A stretch of 36,209 nt of DNA from a virus (lineage: Duplodnaviria > Heunggongvirae > Uroviricota > Caudoviricetes). The stretch is taken from positions 1-36,209 of the IMG/VR virus record IMGVR_UViG_3300026224_000019. The stretch is one strand, 5' to 3'. This document shows, piece by piece, positions 1,419 through 11,970 of this stretch. Both the position numbers and the translations under genes were made by a program. The notes under the pieces were generated by a model. The model was not told the origin of the DNA, searched no databases, and saw nothing but the letters and a program-made list of their open reading frames with translations. Positions within the stretch are counted from its first letter, which is position 1; each line of letters opens with the position of its first letter.

Positions 1419-3899
1419 TTAAAAATCAGTCTGATTCGGGATCAGTTTTTGTATCGTGGCTGTAACGTATTTCGCCTGGTGACGGGCATCATCCAGCGCA
1501 TGGTGGCGCACGCCTTCAAATGGAATAACTGTTCTGGCATCGAAGCCGATAGTTTTTCCCAGTTCAACGATTGTACGTACATCGCGATCGTTGTAGTAAC
1601 GCCACGGGCAGGGGATGTTCAGGCGTTCGTACGAGGTTCGTAAAATAGTGTTGTCGAAAGTTGCACCATTGCCCCATACCTGAACGAATTTTTCATCTGA
1701 GTATTCGTTGATGAACTCCCGAAACCGCGAAAGGGCATCCTTCAGTTTTACCTGGTCTGTTAAAATGGCAGCTCTGGCTTCACTGGACTGCTTCAGCCAC
1801 CATTCGATGGTGCCACCGTCAGGAACAGCCCCTGTATTCATTGCGTCAGTCAGACTGATAACGATATAAAATACTGGCCCGATTTCCCCTGTTTGTGGGT
1901 CGAAGAAAACCGCACCAATAACCACGATGGGCGCATTGGCGTTGGTTCCCATTGTTTCAAGGTCGATCATCAGGTGGTACCACACTCTGCTGGTGGATGT
2001 GATAATGTGATGACCGTTCACCGCAATTAAGGGATCTGCCGTCTCGCCAGTTTTATTATCGCTGGCGTGGTCCTGAGCGCTGCCAGCATTCTTCTTGTGT
2101 GAATGTTCAGCGCCTTCCATTTCCTCCGGATCATCTTCCTGAACTTCAACCTGATACTCTTCATCGAATGTTTCCTGGTATGTTGCGTCGCCCATCACCG
2201 CGCCACAATCAGGGCAGTTGCCGCCGCCGGTTTGACCGCAGGCGGTGCAGACTTTTTCCGGTTCCTGTTGCGCTACTGGCTCAGGTTGTTTCGTTTCTGG
2301 CTCGTTTTGTAACGCATTTGGGCCGTTTTGTTCCGCTTTCTGGTCGTTCTGTTCCGTTTCTTGCTGGTTCTGATTCACTGAATCGCGGGTTTCAATCCCC
2401 TTCACCCATTTCGGATCATTCGGGTCGCTAATCCCTGCAACAAATTCACCACGTGATACAGCAAGCAACTTATCGGCGTCAGGCTGGCTGATATTGGCTG
2501 CCTGCATAATTTTGTTTACTTCGTCAGCGGTAACTTTTACCGGCTCTGGTTGTACGGTCGTGTCAGATGCACCAGTATTTTGTTGTGAACCTGAGTACGT
2601 GCCGTTTTTACGTGCGAAGTATTCCTCTTTTGTGATTTCCGTAGCTCCCAAAGCCAGCGCTTTTTCCAGACCAGAAAGTTTGTTTGCACGACCATATTTT
2701 TCGCCATCCTTATCGGTGAAAAGGAAGTAGAACGGCCCCTCACGCTCTACAGATGGTTCAGTTTCCAGCGTGCTTTCATTTTTTTGGGTATCAGATACTT
2801 CAGTTTCCACTGCATCAGTTTGTGCTGCTGACGGCTGGAGAATATCAGCAGTGCTCTGGTCTGTTTCTTCATCCTCAAACACGCCCTTTGTCGCCAGGTA
2901 TTCAGTGATGTATTTGTTCAGTGCCACGGGATCCTTGTGAATGTCGAGCGGACGCTCACGGACAAGACCAAAAATAGTCTGACGGTTGTAGCGAATGGCA
3001 TCAGGCTGTTTGCGCATTGATGCGGAAATGCGCTTCCAGTCTTCGCGGTCTTTGGCGATAACTTCATTTTCTGCCCAGCGAAGGATGTTACCGTCAATGC
3101 TTCCGGGGTCCGTATCACCAGGCCAGAGATAGCAGGCCAGCTCCCTGTCCAGCGCTTTCCATGTCTGCTTATATTCGCGACGAATGGCAGCAGTGGCAGG
3201 GTTGATTTTTTCTGCTGAGTTTTCAGTGTGCTGTCGGTTGACTCTGACGCGGGCAAGGTCAACAACAGACGTGTATTTTCCAGTCTCTTTGCGCTCTGCG
3301 TCCTGCCGTTTTTTCCAGTTACGTAATTCAGCCTGAATTTCGGGCCATTTGGCACTCGGCTTGCATTTGTGCTTAACCCATCCGATAGCGAACAGTTTGC
3401 GTTCCGGATACATAGCGTTAATTTCAGGCGTTTTCATCAATGCCTCAACGATATGCCCGTCGAATGTTGCCATGTCCTCCTGCAACAATTCCTGTGCACT
3501 AATCACCATATCAACGGTGATGTTTTCACATGTACCGAACTTAACCAGGACCGCGTTCTGTACTTCAAGGGACAGCTTGTCAAAATTGACGTTCATCGGA
3601 TCGGATTCTGGTTCGACCGGAATAAAGGAAGCGGATTCCTCATCCCAGCGGTTTTCCAGCATATATTCGGTATCCCAGGAGTCGATGGCAGGGCGGGGCA
3701 TGCCGGGTTTATCCTCGCAGACAAGAAATTTATAAGCGCAGTCCTGAGCAGCCGGATATTGCTCCAGGAATTGCCAGGTAAATTTGGCACGGGCGCGACG
3801 TTCGTCGCCGGCTTCAATGGCAGTGGCTACAGCGACTGCACCTTCTTCCTTTATTGCCTGTTCGTCCGGAATGGCGGCGCAAATAAAGACTTTACTCAT
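1419..3899 (-). CDS. Large prophage exonuclease (826 aa): C-terminal DnaQ-like 3'-5' exonuclease domain, N-terminal ~550 aa of unknown function with a Cys4 zinc-ribbon motif
   Basis: C-terminal MIDLETMGTNANAPIVVIGAVFFD ... HHALDDARHQAKY matches the DEDDh exonuclease motif pattern. CTACGQ...CPDCG zinc ribbon mid-protein. Occupies the recombination-gene position next to int/xis. Confidence 0.7.
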   Translation of the reverse strand: MSKVFICAAIPDEQAIKEEGAVAVATAIEAGDERRARAKFTWQFLEQYPAAQDCAYKFLVCEDKPGMPRPAIDSWDTEYMLENRWDEESASFIPVEPESDPMNVNFDKLSLEVQNAVLVKFGTCENITVDMVISAQELLQEDMATFDGHIVEALMKTPEINAMYPERKLFAIGWVKHKCKPSAKWPEIQAELRNWKKRQDAERKETGKYTSVVDLARVRVNRQHTENSAEKINPATAAIRREYKQTWKALDRELACYLWPGDTDPGSIDGNILRWAENEVIAKDREDWKRISASMRKQPDAIRYNRQTIFGLVRERPLDIHKDPVALNKYITEYLATKGVFEDEETDQSTADILQPSAAQTDAVETEVSDTQKNESTLETEPSVEREGPFYFLFTDKDGEKYGRANKLSGLEKALALGATEITKEEYFARKNGTYSGSQQNTGASDTTVQPEPVKVTADEVNKIMQAANISQPDADKLLAVSRGEFVAGISDPNDPKWVKGIETRDSVNQNQQETEQNDQKAEQNGPNALQNEPETKQPEPVAQQEPEKVCTACGQTGGGNCPDCGAVMGDATYQETFDEEYQVEVQEDDPEEMEGAEHSHKKNAGSAQDHASDNKTGETADPLIAVNGHHIITSTSRVWYHLMIDLETMGTNANAPIVVIGAVFFDPQTGEIGPVFYIVISLTDAMNTGAVPDGGTIEWWLKQSSEARAAILTDQVKLKDALSRFREFINEYSDEKFVQVWGNGATFDNTILRTSYERLNIPCPWRYYNDRDVRTIVELGKTIGFDARTVIPFEGVRHHALDDARHQAKYVTATIQKLIPNQTDF

Positions 3900-3990
3900 T
3901 TTGTTTTAACCTCATTACAGATTTAAGGGTGAACAAATCCCTGCCATTGCTGGCATATATAAAAAGAATCTGATTTTTGAATTACCGCAC

Positions 3991-4185
3991 TCAGGATTTT
4001 GATGCAGGTGTTTCAGTAAAATTCTGGTGTATGATTTTTTCTACCGGATAACAGTTACCGGGAATTTTCTGTTCTTTCATTGCGGCAATACATTCCTCCT
4101 TGCTGTCATAAATACCCGTTACCATATCAACCGGTTCGCTGTTAGCCATAAAAACAAGCATGACCGAGGCCCACATTACACCCAT
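3991..4185 (-). CDS. Small membrane protein (64 aa), possibly YdfD-like
   Basis: Hydrophobic N-terminus (MGVMWASVMLVFMA). Lies immediately downstream of the DicB-like gene, the position of ydfD in Qin. The homology call is from memory only. Confidence 0.45.
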   Translation of the reverse strand: MGVMWASVMLVFMANSEPVDMVTGIYDSKEECIAAMKEQKIPGNCYPVEKIIHQNFTETPASKS

Positions 4186-4373
4186 GATTTTTTCTCCTGG
4201 AAAATGCCAAGTTTAAGAAGGGCGAGTCGGGAAAGCATGGAATTATCATTGAGAAGATAAGGTTCATATTTCCTCATATTAATGGCATCCTCAGTGAAGT
4301 CTTTATTGCTGAGCTGAATGCCAATATCAAAACAACCTTCAGATGTATTAACGTTTGGTAATAACGTTTCCAT
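4176..4373 (-). CDS. dicB: DicB-like cell-division inhibitor (65 aa)
   Basis: N-terminus METLLPNVNTSEGCFDIGIQLSN...FTEDAIN matches my recollection of E. coli DicB (MKTLLPNVNTSEGCFEIG...FTEDAINKRK). GAGGA RBS 8 nt upstream. Lies downstream of the DicF-like RNA as in Qin. Confidence 0.75.
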   Translation of the reverse strand: METLLPNVNTSEGCFDIGIQLSNKDFTEDAINMRKYEPYLLNDNSMLSRLALLKLGIFQEKKSWV

Positions 4374-4390: not shown

Positions 4391-4530
4391 TGAATTTTGT
4401 GATGCGGTGCCTGGTGCCTCCAGGTGACGTTAACCAGTTAACAATTAACGCCGGAGTATTTCACCCATAAGGTTGCTTGTTTTAACTGTTCCGCGTGCGC
4501 TGAGCCGCATTCACCGCATCACAAAATTCA
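4391..4530. repeat. Perfect 19-bp inverted repeat (TGAATTTTGTGATGCGGTG / CACCGCATCACAAAATTCA) flanking 102 bp; candidate RNA duplex / processing site
   Basis: Arms at 4391-4409 and 4512-4530 are exact reverse complements. Inner region holds nested palindromes (CCTGGTGCCTCCAGG, GTTAACCAGTTAAC). Confidence 0.8.
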
Positions 4531-4590
4531 CTTTAAAAAGGGCGGACATCAGCCAGCAATGAAACTGATGCCGCCAAAAGGTAATCAACA
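4531..4590 (-). ncRNA. dicF: DicF-like small RNA with intrinsic terminator
   Basis: Minus-strand sequence ...UUUUGGCGGCAUCAGUUUCAUUGCUGGCUGAUGUCCGCCCUUUUU resembles E. coli DicF as I remember it (UUUGGCGGUAUCAGUUUU...GCCGCCCUUUUU). GC stem (4540-4552 / 4565-4575) followed by a U-run. Located upstream of the dicB-like gene. The 5' end is approximate. Confidence 0.6.
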
Positions 4591-4915
4591 TGGGTTGTTG
4601 CAGCGGGGTTGTCACTCAGGCGTATGGTCAACCTGACAACCCGGTGTTATCTCGAGGAAAAGATAGCCTCGCCATACTTACCGCCGCGCCATTTCGCGGA
4701 TTGCCACAACCGGAAGCGCACGGTCGAAGATGCCGGTGGCACGCAACAGAGGGAGAAATAACTTCGCCGTGCGCTTTCGCGTTATGCCCTGACTTTTCAG
4801 GGATATATCCTTTCAGTAAACTGTCAGTGCCGGATTCTTATCCGTGTCCGGCGCACGACAACACGCTGTCACGTGTGGTCTCCATTCTCAACCAGTAACC
4901 TCAATGGAGGATAAA

Positions 4916-5158
4916 ATGCCAACAAAACTATGCCCAGCCTGTAATTCTTCGTCTGATTTCTCAGAGAAGAATGGTTATTATATTTTTGATTGCCCGAAAC
5001 ACGGTGTATTCCATATATCAAAACTTGATGGGATATTTGTGAAACCAAGTCAGTATCAGGCTGACAAGTTAAATAAAATTCTCAATGCCAAAAGAGCGCC
5101 AGGCTATACGGGACCTATAGAGGTTTTACCGCGTCCTCGTCTTGTGGAACTGGATTAA
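4916..5158 (+). CDS. Hypothetical zinc-ribbon protein (80 aa)
   Basis: ATG at 4916 preceded by GGAGG with 6-nt spacing. CPAC...CPKH motif. The only plus-strand gene in the leftward early region. Its 3' end overlaps the convergent 186-aa gene by 44 nt. Confidence 0.55.
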   Translation: MPTKLCPACNSSSDFSEKNGYYIFDCPKHGVFHISKLDGIFVKPSQYQADKLNKILNAKRAPGYTGPIEVLPRPRLVELD

Positions 5159-5675
5159 ACCAGTGCTCCTGAATCGCTCGTATTTTTACCCTCGGATGAT
5201 TGCCGGGGGTGATTATTAATTCTGGCGGACATGGTTCTCCATTATGACAAATTGCGCTATAAGTGAAATCAGCCAGAGCAGTGCCGGTCATTATTATTCC
5301 GAACTTATCAAGCAGCGAGAGCAAATCACGCAAACAGGAGTTATCAGTTTTTTCGTTATAAAATGAATCCCCTGATGCAGAGAGCATTTCACCTCGCTCT
5401 GCGATGCGTTTGACCATTTTCCAGAATTCTTTTTTTGAATACTTTTCCTCGACATAAAAACCCATCGCCGAGGCAATCCGCTTTGCAGCTTCTTCAGTAT
5501 CCTGGTTGTTTGTTACCGAAACAGAGTACAATCCGATAAACGCATCGCGCACATTACGAGCCATATTATCAGTGTCTTTTTTCGTTACCGATTCCAATGC
5601 AAGTTCGTTCAGGTGTTGACGGAGTGTCTGTGCTGCAATCTCCTGGATTGATAGTGGTAAATCTTTAAATTCCAT
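5115..5675 (-). CDS. Hypothetical protein (186 aa), leftward early operon
   Basis: Complete ORF; ATG 11 nt downstream of the YdfB-like stop. No motif recognised. Confidence 0.6.
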   Translation of the reverse strand: MEFKDLPLSIQEIAAQTLRQHLNELALESVTKKDTDNMARNVRDAFIGLYSVSVTNNQDTEEAAKRIASAMGFYVEEKYSKKEFWKMVKRIAERGEMLSASGDSFYNEKTDNSCLRDLLSLLDKFGIIMTGTALADFTYSAICHNGEPCPPELIITPGNHPRVKIRAIQEHWFNPVPQDEDAVKPL

Positions 5676-5686
5676 CTTTAACCCCG

Positions 5687-5815
5687 TTAGCCGTTAGATT
5701 TTGCCGAACTGGAAAGCGCCTGTTTAAACTCACTGAAGCTGAGAGCTTCTTCGCCTTCGGCAAGGCCTTCGAAGTATTCTTCGTAAGCCTTTTCCATGAT
5801 TGTGTCGAAATCCAT
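5687..5815 (-). CDS. Small acidic protein (42 aa), YdfB-like
   Basis: MDFDTIMEKAYEEYFEGLAEGEEALSFSEFKQALSSSAKSNG. Start overlaps the upstream stop (TGAtATG). Same size and position as Qin ydfB. Confidence 0.5.
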   Translation of the reverse strand: MDFDTIMEKAYEEYFEGLAEGEEALSFSEFKQALSSSAKSNG

Positions 5816-5816
5816 A

Positions 5817-5972
5817 TCACTCACCTGAGTTTCTTTCCAGCCAGCGACGGGCACCATTTTCGGTTTTAAACGTTTTGCTTTTGGTATACGTCATCGCGGT
5901 GAACGTACCGTCCTGGTTGGGGAACACGCCACATACCAGAGATTCGCTGTTGCCAAGATCGATAGTATCCAT
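5817..5972 (-). CDS. Small protein (51 aa), YdfA-like (DUF1391-type)
   Basis: Internal ATG (MDTIDLGNSESL...) with GAGGT RBS; matches the size and position of Qin ydfA. The track ORF extends to 6065, but that start has no RBS and sits inside a promoter-like element. Confidence 0.5.
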   Translation of the reverse strand: MDTIDLGNSESLVCGVFPNQDGTFTAMTYTKSKTFKTENGARRWLERNSGE

Positions 5973-6049
5973 GCTGACCTCATTTCCCCTTAACGCCGGG
6001 GTAGCGGAACTGTTTGCTGAGAACACCGTGCGGTGTCTTGATGGATGGT

Positions 6050-6101
6050 AATTTAGTTTTCTCATGAAAATTGGTCAAGTGTTTTTGATGAGAAAACTCA
6101 A
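6050..6101 (-). promoter_or_regulatory. Candidate leftward early promoter and operators (pL/OL-like)
   Basis: Minus strand: TTGACC (6078-6073), 17-nt spacer, TAAATT (6055-6050). Flanked by inverted copies of TGAGAAAACT (6055-6064 reverse, 6089-6098 forward), a motif also present in the OR region. Confidence 0.5.
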
Positions 6102-6165: not shown

Positions 6166-6573
6166 TTATTGATGTTTGTTACGTTTGCGAGCTTCTAGTA
6201 GCTCGGTGAATAGGCGATTAAAATTCTCAACGCGGGCACGGAGTTCGCTGATTTGTGCTTGCTGCTCTGATTTTGGAAGTGCGCGATACAATCGCAACAT
6301 CTCCAACTCATCTTCCGATAAGTCTAAGGCGCTGTTGAGTGCAACTGGTGGATCTGGTGTTTTATCCTCGTCACCAAACAGTATCCAAGTTGGTGAACAT
6401 TGCAATACCTCAGCCAGGCGATGCAAATTTTGCCCGCGCGGGGCTGTATGGTCGCTTTCCCATAGTGAAATTGATGAGCCAGATACGCCAGCAGCTTTGC
6501 TTAAATCGTTTTGACTTAAACCAACCTGTTTGCGTCTTTCTCTAATTCGTTGGCCTAAAGTTTTCTCGTTCAT
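6166..6573 (-). CDS. dicA: Prophage repressor, HTH XRE-family, DicA-like (135 aa from Met18 of the track ORF)
   Basis: GLSQNDLSKAAGVSGSSISLWE helix-turn-helix; VLQCSPTWILFGDEDK and MLRLYRALPKSEQ...RARVENFNRLFTELLEARKR match my recollection of E. coli DicA. Divergent from the Cro-like gene. Confidence 0.8.
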   Translation of the reverse strand: MNEKTLGQRIRERRKQVGLSQNDLSKAAGVSGSSISLWESDHTAPRGQNLHRLAEVLQCSPTWILFGDEDKTPDPPVALNSALDLSEDELEMLRLYRALPKSEQQAQISELRARVENFNRLFTELLEARKRNKHQ

Positions 6574-6594
6574 ATTTAGATATCTTAATAACCC

Positions 6595-6637
6595 TTGACT
6601 TGAGATTCCTTGAGTGATTACCATTGAGAAAACTCAA
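6595..6637 (+). promoter_or_regulatory. Candidate rightward early promoter/operator (pR/OR-like)
   Basis: TTGACT at 6595-6600; TACCAT at 6619-6624; palindromic operator TTGAGAAAACTCAA at 6624-6637; GGAGGGG RBS before the Cro-like ATG at 6651. Confidence 0.45.
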
Positions 6638-6650
6638 CTTTGGAGGGGTG

Positions 6651-6878
6651 ATGTTTAAATCAGACGTAATTAATTTTTATGGGACGAAAGCCAAAGTAGC
6701 GAAAGCTGCTGGTGTTGATCCATCTGCTGTTTCTCAATGGGGAGAACTGGTTCCTGAAGGTCGCGCGATGCGCCTGCAAGAGGCATCTGGCGGGGAACTT
6801 CAGTACGATCCCAAAGTTTATGACGAATATCGTAAGGCAAAGCGTGCGGGGCGGTTGAACAATGAAAATCACCCCTGA
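6651..6878 (+). CDS. Cro-like HTH protein (DicC/YdaS family, 75 aa)
   Basis: Divergent from the repressor across an operator-containing intergenic region. ATG 6651 has a strong RBS. C-terminal motif VPEGRAMRLQEASGGELQYDPKVYDEY. Confidence 0.65.
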   Translation: MFKSDVINFYGTKAKVAKAAGVDPSAVSQWGELVPEGRAMRLQEASGGELQYDPKVYDEYRKAKRAGRLNNENHP

Positions 6879-11524: not shown

Positions 11525-11814
11525 CTGGCCTGAAGCATTCACAACGGTAGGAATTGCGATGGCAGTGGCGCTGGTGGTGTATTCGATTTGCCGCTGGGGA
11601 TAAAAACGGTTTGCGGGAAAAAGGGAGTTAAGTAAAATTGCTGCGGGTGCTTGAGGCTATCTGTCTCAGGCATGAACACCAAAAGGCAGATAGAGAAAAG
11701 CCCCAGTTAACATTACGCGTCCTGCAAGACGCTTAACATTAATCTGAGGCCCAATCTATGTCTCACAAATGTAGGTTAGCCTCTTACGTGCCGAAAGGCA
11801 AGGAGAAGCAGGCT

Positions 11815-11970
11815 ATGAAGCAGCAAAAGGCGATGTTAATCGCCCTGATCGTCATCTGTTTAACCGTCATAGTGACGGCACTGGTAACGAGGAAAGACCT
11901 CTGCGAGGTACGAATCCGAACCGGCCAGACGGAGGTTGCTGTCTTCGTAGACTACGAATCTGAGAAGTAA
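11815..11970 (+). CDS. hokD: Hok/Gef-family type I toxin (51 aa), HokD-like
   Basis: MKQQKAMLIALIVICLTVIVTALVTRKDLCEVRIRTGQTEVAVF is the Hok signature (single TM, conserved Cys, RxxxxEV). AAGGAGAAG RBS. In-frame upstream extension from 11758 could be the mok-like leader frame. Confidence 0.8.
   Translation: MKQQKAMLIALIVICLTVIVTALVTRKDLCEVRIRTGQTEVAVFVDYESEK

Follow-up and report, generated by a model that had tools for sequence, protein, structure and literature searches.

A polymorphic pair of convergent, overlapping genes at the sieB position in the dicBF-type early-left operon of a lambdoid prophage

Introduction

In phage lambda, sieB is encoded on the opposite strand within the early-left operon, a short way downstream of the first early genes, and is convergent with N, with the 3′ ends of the two genes abutting. 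The sieB gene of the Rac prophage occupies the same position: it converges on ydaF, overlapping it by 4 nt, and precedes the kilS small RNA and kilR, which encodes a cell-division inhibitor. RNA sequencing of MG1655 lists Rac sieB-ydaF as a convergent excludon with overlapping transcription (PMC12288877). Here we analyze positions 1 to 36,209 of IMG/VR record IMGVR_UViG_3300026224_000019 (Caudoviricetes), a stretch of 36,209 nt that we refer to as the window. The window is a lambdoid prophage with the minus-strand gene order of the dicBF operon of the Escherichia coli K-12 prophage Qin, and the subject of our study is a pair of convergent genes within this operon, one encoding an 80-aa predicted zinc-ribbon protein on the plus strand (the small gene) and the other a 186-aa protein on the minus strand (the large gene). 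An original prediction, made from the letters of the window, described convergent pairs next to the immunity region as a classic place for exclusion functions, and this holds for the annotated lambda N/sieB and Rac ydaF/sieB pairs.

The prediction also equated this slot with that of ydfC in Qin and considered its content to be replaced, and both points were borne out. The flanks in the two prophages are identical (ydfA, ydfB, a DicF-precursor leader of 325-340 nt, dicF, dicB and ydfD), and the 186-aa protein is unrelated to YdfC, with no alignment to K-12 YdfC by BLASTP at E <= 100. Qin ydfC encodes a protein of 72 aa that lacks the N-terminal domain of the 186-aa protein (the MEFKDLP domain), and it has no convergent partner gene.

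Results

Our analysis confirmed the coordinates originally given for a plus-strand zinc-ribbon open reading frame (ORF) with a GGAGG ribosome-binding site and for its 44-nt overlap with the 3′ end of the 186-aa gene. The features of the two genes are as follows:

4916..5158, plus strand: small gene, 80-aa zinc-ribbon protein, ATG at 4916, stop codon at 5156-5158
4931-4933, 4940-4942, 4991-4993 and 5000-5002, plus strand: zinc-ligand codons C6, C9, C26 and H29 of the small gene
5115..5675, minus strand: large gene, 186 aa
5511-5675, minus strand: N-domain of the large gene, codons 1-55, widely shared
Codons 56-78 of the large gene, minus strand: linker
5118-5441, minus strand: C-domain of the large gene, codons 79-186, allele-specific
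5115..5158, both strands: antiparallel coding overlap, 44 nt

The ribosome-binding site of the small gene is located at 4906-4910, 5 nt 5′ of the ATG. The start codon itself is uncertain, as a variant (P0138) has ATA at the position equivalent to 4916, and an in-frame alternative ATG at 4904 would give a protein of 84 aa. Within the overlap, the codons for ...PIEVLPRPRLVELD of the small protein lie across from those for ...NPVPQDEDAVKPL of the large protein. The extent of the overlap varies elsewhere, being 20 nt in allele B, 71 nt in a distant locus (L014), and 0, 12 and 131 nt in other alleles. In RefSeq the small gene is annotated inconsistently: several genome annotations omit it, and others extend it at the 5′ end to 135, 189 or 199 aa.

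Both genes are real and under purifying selection. Between diverged alleles (69% nucleotide identity), the ratio of nonsynonymous to synonymous substitution rates (dN/dS) of the small gene in its own frame is 0.09-0.17 (0.13-0.15 for the window allele, A, against allele B), and it is 0.13-0.31 over codons 1-65, which lie outside any minus-strand gene, whereas the other five frames give values of 0.43-1.9 and contain 3-8 stops. The length of 80 aa and the ...VELD C-terminus are retained in both alleles, and the four predicted zinc ligands (CxxC...CxxH) are unchanged in all homologues, including a 44%-identical homologue in L014. An ORF length of 80 codons would by itself be unremarkable, and it is this in-frame selection, set against the other frames, that identifies the small gene as a real gene. 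We also considered that this ORF could be a chance frame, the shadow of conserved sequence on the minus strand, since it is short, is often omitted or variably started in annotations, and has its last 14 codons opposite a real gene. The selection on codons 1-65, the conserved length and ligands, and the L014 homologue in the same arrangement make this extremely improbable. In the large gene, dN/dS is 0.12-0.24 for the C-domain. For the N-domain, two comparisons give 0.20-0.25, but the two made against one further locus (L013) give 0.40 and 1.07.

The small protein is predicted to adopt a zinc-ribbon fold, with two conserved pairs of ligands on beta-hairpin knuckles, and metal binding is likewise a prediction. 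In the AlphaFold2 (AF2) model, residues 1-35 form a four-stranded ribbon with a predicted local distance difference test (pLDDT) score of 81-86, followed by a helix at 46-59 and a disordered tail. The Foldseek matches of this model are generic zinc ribbons only (ZifS, RPB9/RPC11-type; E >= 0.067), the only Pfam match is to Zn_ribbon_TFIIB, below threshold (14.7 bits; cut-off 22), and in PHROGs the protein belongs to phrog_10133 (1.1e-27), a family without known function.

The large protein combines a common N-domain with a rare C-domain. Its first ~55 residues (MEFKDLP..IQEIAA..L...RNVRDAF.GLY) are common to many prophage proteins with mutually unrelated C-termini, and when 1.84 billion representatives were searched exhaustively by profile, the N-domain proved widespread and the C-domain turned up elsewhere only in a single protein, P0147. 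The AF2 model is poor (pLDDT 49.8), with ~70 reached only by the N-terminal helices. The name "RNA-binding protein", given to the 186-aa protein by the Prokaryotic Genome Annotation Pipeline in two genomes, is unsupported by any library or by the literature searched. A homopolymer of seven A residues is present at 5430-5436 (minus strand), in codons K81-K82, and in one locus (L114) the large gene has a -1 frameshift exactly in this run, with the small gene intact, which may reflect a slippage hotspot or a sequencing error.

Remote homology, proposed in the original prediction as a route to function, yielded none for either protein from sequence libraries, the PDB or Foldseek. Searches of Pfam, NCBIfam, PHROGs and PADLOC identified no functional homologue of either protein or of the partners in other alleles, and PDB sequence searches returned nothing below E = 0.28. 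Fold searches assigned no function to either model, that of the large protein being unreliable past its N-terminal helices. The pair does not have the form of a type II toxin-antitoxin system: the genes are convergent and not co-transcribed, and neither matches a toxin or antitoxin in Pfam, NCBIfam or PADLOC. The 80-aa protein has no match to Pfam SieB.

Comparison of synteny across Qin-like prophages, also suggested originally, demonstrated a polymorphic cassette between conserved flanks. The varying part and the pairs of genes found in it are:

4930..5520, both strands: exchangeable cassette, the part varying among MEFKDLP-class alleles
Allele pair: 186 or 179 aa with the 80-aa zinc ribbon, overlap 44 or 20 nt
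Allele pair: 212 aa with a 69-aa protein, abutting
Allele pair: 112 aa with a 64-aa protein, overlap 12 nt
Allele pair: 129 aa with a 99-aa protein, overlap 131 nt

The ribosome-binding site and start (ATGGAGGATAAAATG) of the small gene, together with the large gene's first ~55 codons, are common to at least five alleles, which vary between these shared ends, with the bodies of both genes changing together. Sliding identity against alleles B-E and K-12 puts one border within the small gene, around its codon 5 (~4930), and the other within the large gene, around its codons 50-57 (~5500-5520); in the ydfC allele the left border is upstream of the small-gene ribosome-binding site. Across about 65 loci (IMG/VR prophage loci and other assemblies), the type of C-terminus and the type of small gene are paired strictly 1:1. 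The 69-aa gene of allele C is also under purifying selection, with dN/dS of about 0.25 in frame versus 0.7-1.8 in the other frames. The earlier description of a replaced cassette therefore stands as far as replacement is concerned, whereas a simple gene-for-gene swap does not describe the locus: the window carries a rare allele of a polymorphic locus with borders inside both genes. Our literature searches found no description of a multi-allelic cassette with such borders.

The flanks of the cassette are matched in 4,734 of 5,426 complete E. coli genomes, and the cassette-specific DNA of the window allele in 25 of them. Nineteen of these 25 are from swine (O139, O141 and enterotoxigenic E. coli, many from one study), and two carry the allele twice. 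Close homologues are restricted to Escherichia and Salmonella; INPHARED phages gave no match by DNA or protein, and two scans of GTDB representative genomes found no relatives. Scanning IMG/VR with the C-domain protein of L014 likewise revealed no relative, and the sole match obtained with the zinc-ribbon protein of that locus, a methyltransferase, was spurious. We also considered an invertible segment of the Gin/Cin type and rejected it, as conserved inverted sites at the borders together with a nearby invertase were not found. An inverted repeat is present at both cassette borders (4889-4904 and 5493-5508; 16 nt, 75% complementary, with a 7-nt perfect core, CAACCAG), and is most likely due to chance, since its second arm is not conserved in other alleles.

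The association of the two genes persists in a distant relative. The sole distant homologue of the C-domain, P0147 (37% identity), is encoded in a KilR-type prophage locus (L014) and is without the shared N-domain. In this locus, a 91-aa zinc-ribbon homologue (44% identity) is encoded convergently at 3843-4118 (minus strand), with a 71-nt overlap with the C-domain gene, and is preceded by an extended -10 promoter-like site, TGATATACT. The 91-aa gene had been missed by the gene finder, and small convergent genes are probably under-counted in protein databases.

The slot may also hold other genes. In one recombinant locus (L113), a type-A large gene ends ...HWFN|SEL (177 aa) and is followed by an unrelated convergent gene of 168 aa at 2098-2604 (minus strand) with a perfect extended -10, TGTATAAT. 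The 168-aa protein has a coiled coil and a C-terminal zinc ribbon and belongs to phrog_1244, and a related 172-aa gene is present in another locus (L035). By eye, the 80-aa ribbon could be a homologue of the ribbon in the 168-aa protein, but BLASTP gave no support for this.

We examined the pair for signals that could govern its transcription, and identified the following:

5186..5222, plus strand: terminator-like hairpin TTACCCTCGG-7 nt-CCGGGGGTGA, -15 kcal/mol, with a T-rich tail
4794..4822, plus strand: weak promoter-like site TTTTCA-17-TAAACT, 8/12 matches, the sole candidate 5′ of the small gene
6050-6078, minus strand: PL-like promoter candidate TTGACC-17-TAAATT, between the repressor gene and the ydfA-like gene

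The hairpin begins 27 nt past the stop codon of the small gene, within the large gene (codons ITPGNHPRV), and would act in one direction only, since the leftward reading has an A-rich tail. As read from the sequence, it would terminate transcription of the small gene and not that of the early operon. Allele B retains a hairpin 3′ of the small gene (-12.9 kcal/mol), and a comparable hairpin with a T-tail follows the small gene of L014, within the neighboring gene. The small gene needs separate transcription, because it is on the strand opposite to the leftward operon and has its own ribosome-binding site. A stricter promoter scan found none on the plus strand upstream of the small gene in the window, and conservation of 4794-4822 is uninformative since this sequence is conserved anyway as part of the leader. 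Orientation and synteny place the large gene in the early-left operon, which the PL-like candidate would drive. Its equivalent in Qin, dicBp, is repressed by DicA (PMC5069750; bioRxiv 10.1101/2023.04.14.536235), and its equivalent in CP-933P, PL933P, is controlled by PaaR2/YdaS (PMC8630535), both shown experimentally.

Downstream of the large gene, the leftward transcript passes through an ORF-poor region with two features:

4591..4915, minus strand: non-coding leader of the early-left transcript and DicF precursor, equivalent to the 340-nt ydfC-dicF spacer of K-12 Qin
4540..4590, minus strand: DicF-like small RNA with terminator, full-length match to Rfam RF00039, E = 2.8e-5

The original prediction had noted that the minus strand here carries hardly any coding capacity, and had read this as part of a replaced cassette. 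The first part is correct: from 5114 to 4591 (524 nt) the longest ATG-started ORF has 17 codons, and although GTG- or TTG-started ORFs of 31 and 59 codons exist, their frames hold 4-7 stops across alleles. The second part is not, since 325 nt of this stretch are conserved leader, also present in K-12, and the other 199 nt run antisense to the small gene, so that the coding gap is not peculiar to the cassette. When aligned with K-12 Qin and three further prophages of E. coli, the leader is conserved from 4591 to about 4870, with 86-100% identity to K-12 and all alleles over roughly 4600-4850, and the leader of Rac is partly alignable with it. The leader folds better than shuffled controls (z = -3.1), and in K-12 the DicF precursor is processed by RNase III as well as RNase E (PMC5069750; bioRxiv 10.1101/2023.04.14.536235). 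A plus-strand ORF of 102 codons at 4590-4898 is antisense to the leader, changes frame between loci, and is almost certainly not a gene; a few genome annotations carry it as a hypothetical protein.

The DicF-like RNA scores 34.1 bits, below the RF00039 gathering score of 48, and has the synteny of DicF, following a long leader and preceding dicB, with an intrinsic terminator at its end (terminator-like site at 4572-4545). It is a variant in which the K-12 5′ segment UUUCUGGUGACG is missing or replaced and the terminator stem-loop is kept, and its targets may differ from those of K-12 DicF. Strains PEC422 and W13-16 have the same variant.

The remaining genes of the region complete the dicBF-type layout:

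6624-6878, plus strand: P22-Cro-like gene
6166-6624, minus strand: CI-type repressor gene, divergent from the P22-Cro-like gene
5817-6065, minus strand: DUF1391/ydfA-like gene
5687-5857, minus strand: ydfB-like gene
4176-4373, minus strand: dicB (Pfam, 1.8e-32)
3991-4185, minus strand: DUF1482/ydfD-like gene (YdfD-like lysis protein)
1419-3899, minus strand: YdfE-type exonuclease gene

The ydfB-like gene is variably present among otherwise similar loci, being absent from three (L007, L047 and L068). An element resembling the Salmonella small RNA STnc100 is located at 4396-4528 (minus strand), between DicF and dicB (40.4 bits; threshold 47), in a region near-identical in K-12 Qin. Elsewhere in the prophage, a strong match to the sok antitoxin RNA of the hok/sok type I toxin-antitoxin class is present at 11645-11820 (plus strand; Rfam RF01794, 120 bits, E = 4.9e-27).

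Discussion

The reading we prefer, and hold tentatively, is that the small gene encodes an exclusion-type protein expressed in the lysogen, that the large gene carries a cognate domain on an early-operon protein, and that the two are expressed in a mutually exclusive manner and exchanged as one cassette. In this view, a lambdoid prophage of the Qin/Rac-like kind would carry, at the sieB position of its early-left (dicBF-type) operon, an accessory module made up of the two genes. Being in the repressor-controlled leftward operon, the 186-aa gene would be made only after derepression, while the 80-aa gene would be transcribed separately, most likely in the lysogen, from a promoter of its own and ending at the one-way hairpin inside the large gene. 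Convergent, overlapping units of this kind would lead to mutual exclusion, as in an excludon: the small gene would be on in the lysogen, and upon induction strong leftward transcription would pass through it and silence it. We infer expression in the lysogen from the position of the small gene, which is equal to that of sieB in lambda and Rac, and from the Rac pair being a listed excludon. The zinc-ribbon protein would serve an exclusion-type function in the lysogen, with the allele-specific C-domain as its putative cognate partner or antagonist, and such cognate pairing would explain why both genes are exchanged as a single cassette.

In favor of this reading are the purifying selection on both genes and on the 69-aa gene of allele C, the joint change of both gene bodies among alleles that keep the same ends, the convergent pair of L014, the joint damage of both genes in O157, the positional equivalents in lambda and Rac, the hairpin 3′ of the small gene in alleles A and B and in L014, the perfect extended -10 of the 168-aa gene in the same slot, and the repressor control of the leftward operon in related prophages. 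Several points weigh against it. A convincing promoter of the small gene was not found in the window, where the weak 8/12 candidate is all that is present. Neither protein is similar to known exclusion, defense or toxin-antitoxin proteins in Pfam, NCBIfam, PHROGs or PADLOC, a negative result that is weak in that PADLOC 2.0 also misses Rac SieB and exclusion genes of the SieB type are not covered. Neither structure model has the quality needed for assessing an interaction between the 80-aa and 186-aa proteins. The co-variation of the genes could be due to linkage alone, as abutting or overlapping genes are not cleanly separable by recombination. The recombinant L113, an arrangement also found in TUM9812 (NZ_CP128926.1; one of the 25 complete genomes), has the C-domain without the 80-aa gene. 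Finally, the joint decay in the O157 lineage, where a frameshift leaves 129 aa of the large protein and truncation leaves 61 aa of the small one, would speak for partnership but is a single clonal event.

Some of these points lead to an alternative in which the two genes are independent neighbors, i.e., a stand-alone zinc-ribbon accessory gene in the sieB slot beside an unrelated early gene with a shuffled C-terminus, held together by linkage only. Lambdoid mosaicism with conserved flanks would give the 1:1 pairing without a functional link, and this alternative accommodates the L113/TUM9812 arrangement, the absence of a convergent gene at Qin ydfC, and the intact small gene next to the frameshifted large gene of L114, with the caveat of a possible homopolymer sequencing error. 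It fits less well with the L014 pair, which persists at 37-44% protein identity in a different background and without the N-domain flank, with the decay of both partners in O157, or with the finding of a convergent partner in every MEFKDLP-class allele seen. We regard it as somewhat unlikely.

A second alternative reverses the roles, with the C-domain as a harmful host-takeover effector and the small gene as a constitutive antidote against leaky early transcription. The architecture matches that of effector-immunity loci, in which hypervariable C-termini follow a conserved N-terminal part and the small cognate gene lies just downstream; the small gene is opposite an inducible operon that ends in the lethal DicF, DicB and YdfD-like lysis protein; and L114, with its intact small gene and frameshifted large gene, would be a case of an antidote outliving its toxin. 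We nevertheless consider this quite unlikely to be the explanation, as no toxin or immunity domain is recognized, and the near-complete C-domain present in L113 without the small gene should do harm if it were toxic.

The pair could also act at the RNA level, with the plus-strand transcript as an antisense regulator of the early-left RNA, through RNase III or interference, that controls read-through into DicF and dicB, and with the peptide of minor importance. If transcription of the plus strand began in the leader, its product would base-pair with several hundred nt of the leftward RNA, RNase III processes the DicF precursor of K-12, and transcription of Rac sieB-ydaF overlaps. What makes this explanation very unlikely is the strong protein-level purifying selection in two alleles and L014, which shows that the peptide matters. 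In addition, small-gene bodies differ wholly between alleles while the leader is constant, which a regulator of the leader would not need, and K-12 processes DicF without such a gene.

Returning to the exclusion-type reading, it can be extended to a polymorphic lock-and-key system, in which the small lysogen protein blocks lytic growth of relatives, whether incoming or co-resident, and a matching domain on the early protein allows escape. In that case only a phage of the same allele, including the induced resident prophage, could grow, and at least five specificities would be swapped as cassettes. This extended form is speculative and we judge it unlikely, although if true it would generalize the sieB/esc logic of P22 to multi-allelic self-recognition among the commonest prophages of E. 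coli.

Regions of the dicBF type are present in most E. coli genomes, and the genes between ydfB and dicF are without known function. According to our analysis, this slot at the sieB position is filled by exchangeable two-gene cassettes, each with a gene on the lysogenic strand and another on the early-lytic strand. The analysis also brings to light several small genes that annotation pipelines overlook or start wrongly. The cassettes are a testable candidate for exclusion between prophages, or between prophage and phage, with built-in self-immunity. If the two proteins of a pair are cognate, such pairs would supply new inhibitors and anti-inhibitors that are small and specific, and would help to explain the mosaic early-left region of lambdoid prophages. 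If the genes are independent neighbors, the result would be useful but ordinary, i.e., a further uncharacterized accessory gene in a known hotspot.

In comparison with known systems, the small gene shares the position of sieB, being on the opposite strand and convergent with early-left genes beside the immunity region. It differs in its product, as SieB of lambda and Rac is about 160-190 aa and the window protein is an unrelated 80-aa zinc ribbon, and in that the C-terminus of its convergent neighbor changes together with it. With convergent excludons the pair shares the orientation, overlapping coding ends (here 44 nt), and a predicted terminator of one gene inside the other (5186-5222, in the large gene), features seen here at the level of sequence; the difference is that one partner belongs to a long operon whose transcription has to continue into dicF and dicB. 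Like polymorphic toxin-immunity cassettes, the locus has a conserved N-terminal part, an exchangeable C-terminal part and a small adjacent gene downstream, but no toxin, immunity, secretion or delivery domain is recognized here, and one recombinant is without the small partner. In the operons of pore-forming colicins, the immunity gene is oppositely oriented within an inducible operon, and the small gene of the window is likewise on the opposite strand inside such an operon. The position and orientation are those already known for sieB, whereas the proteins are uncharacterized, and a multi-allelic cassette with borders in both genes was not found in the literature searched.

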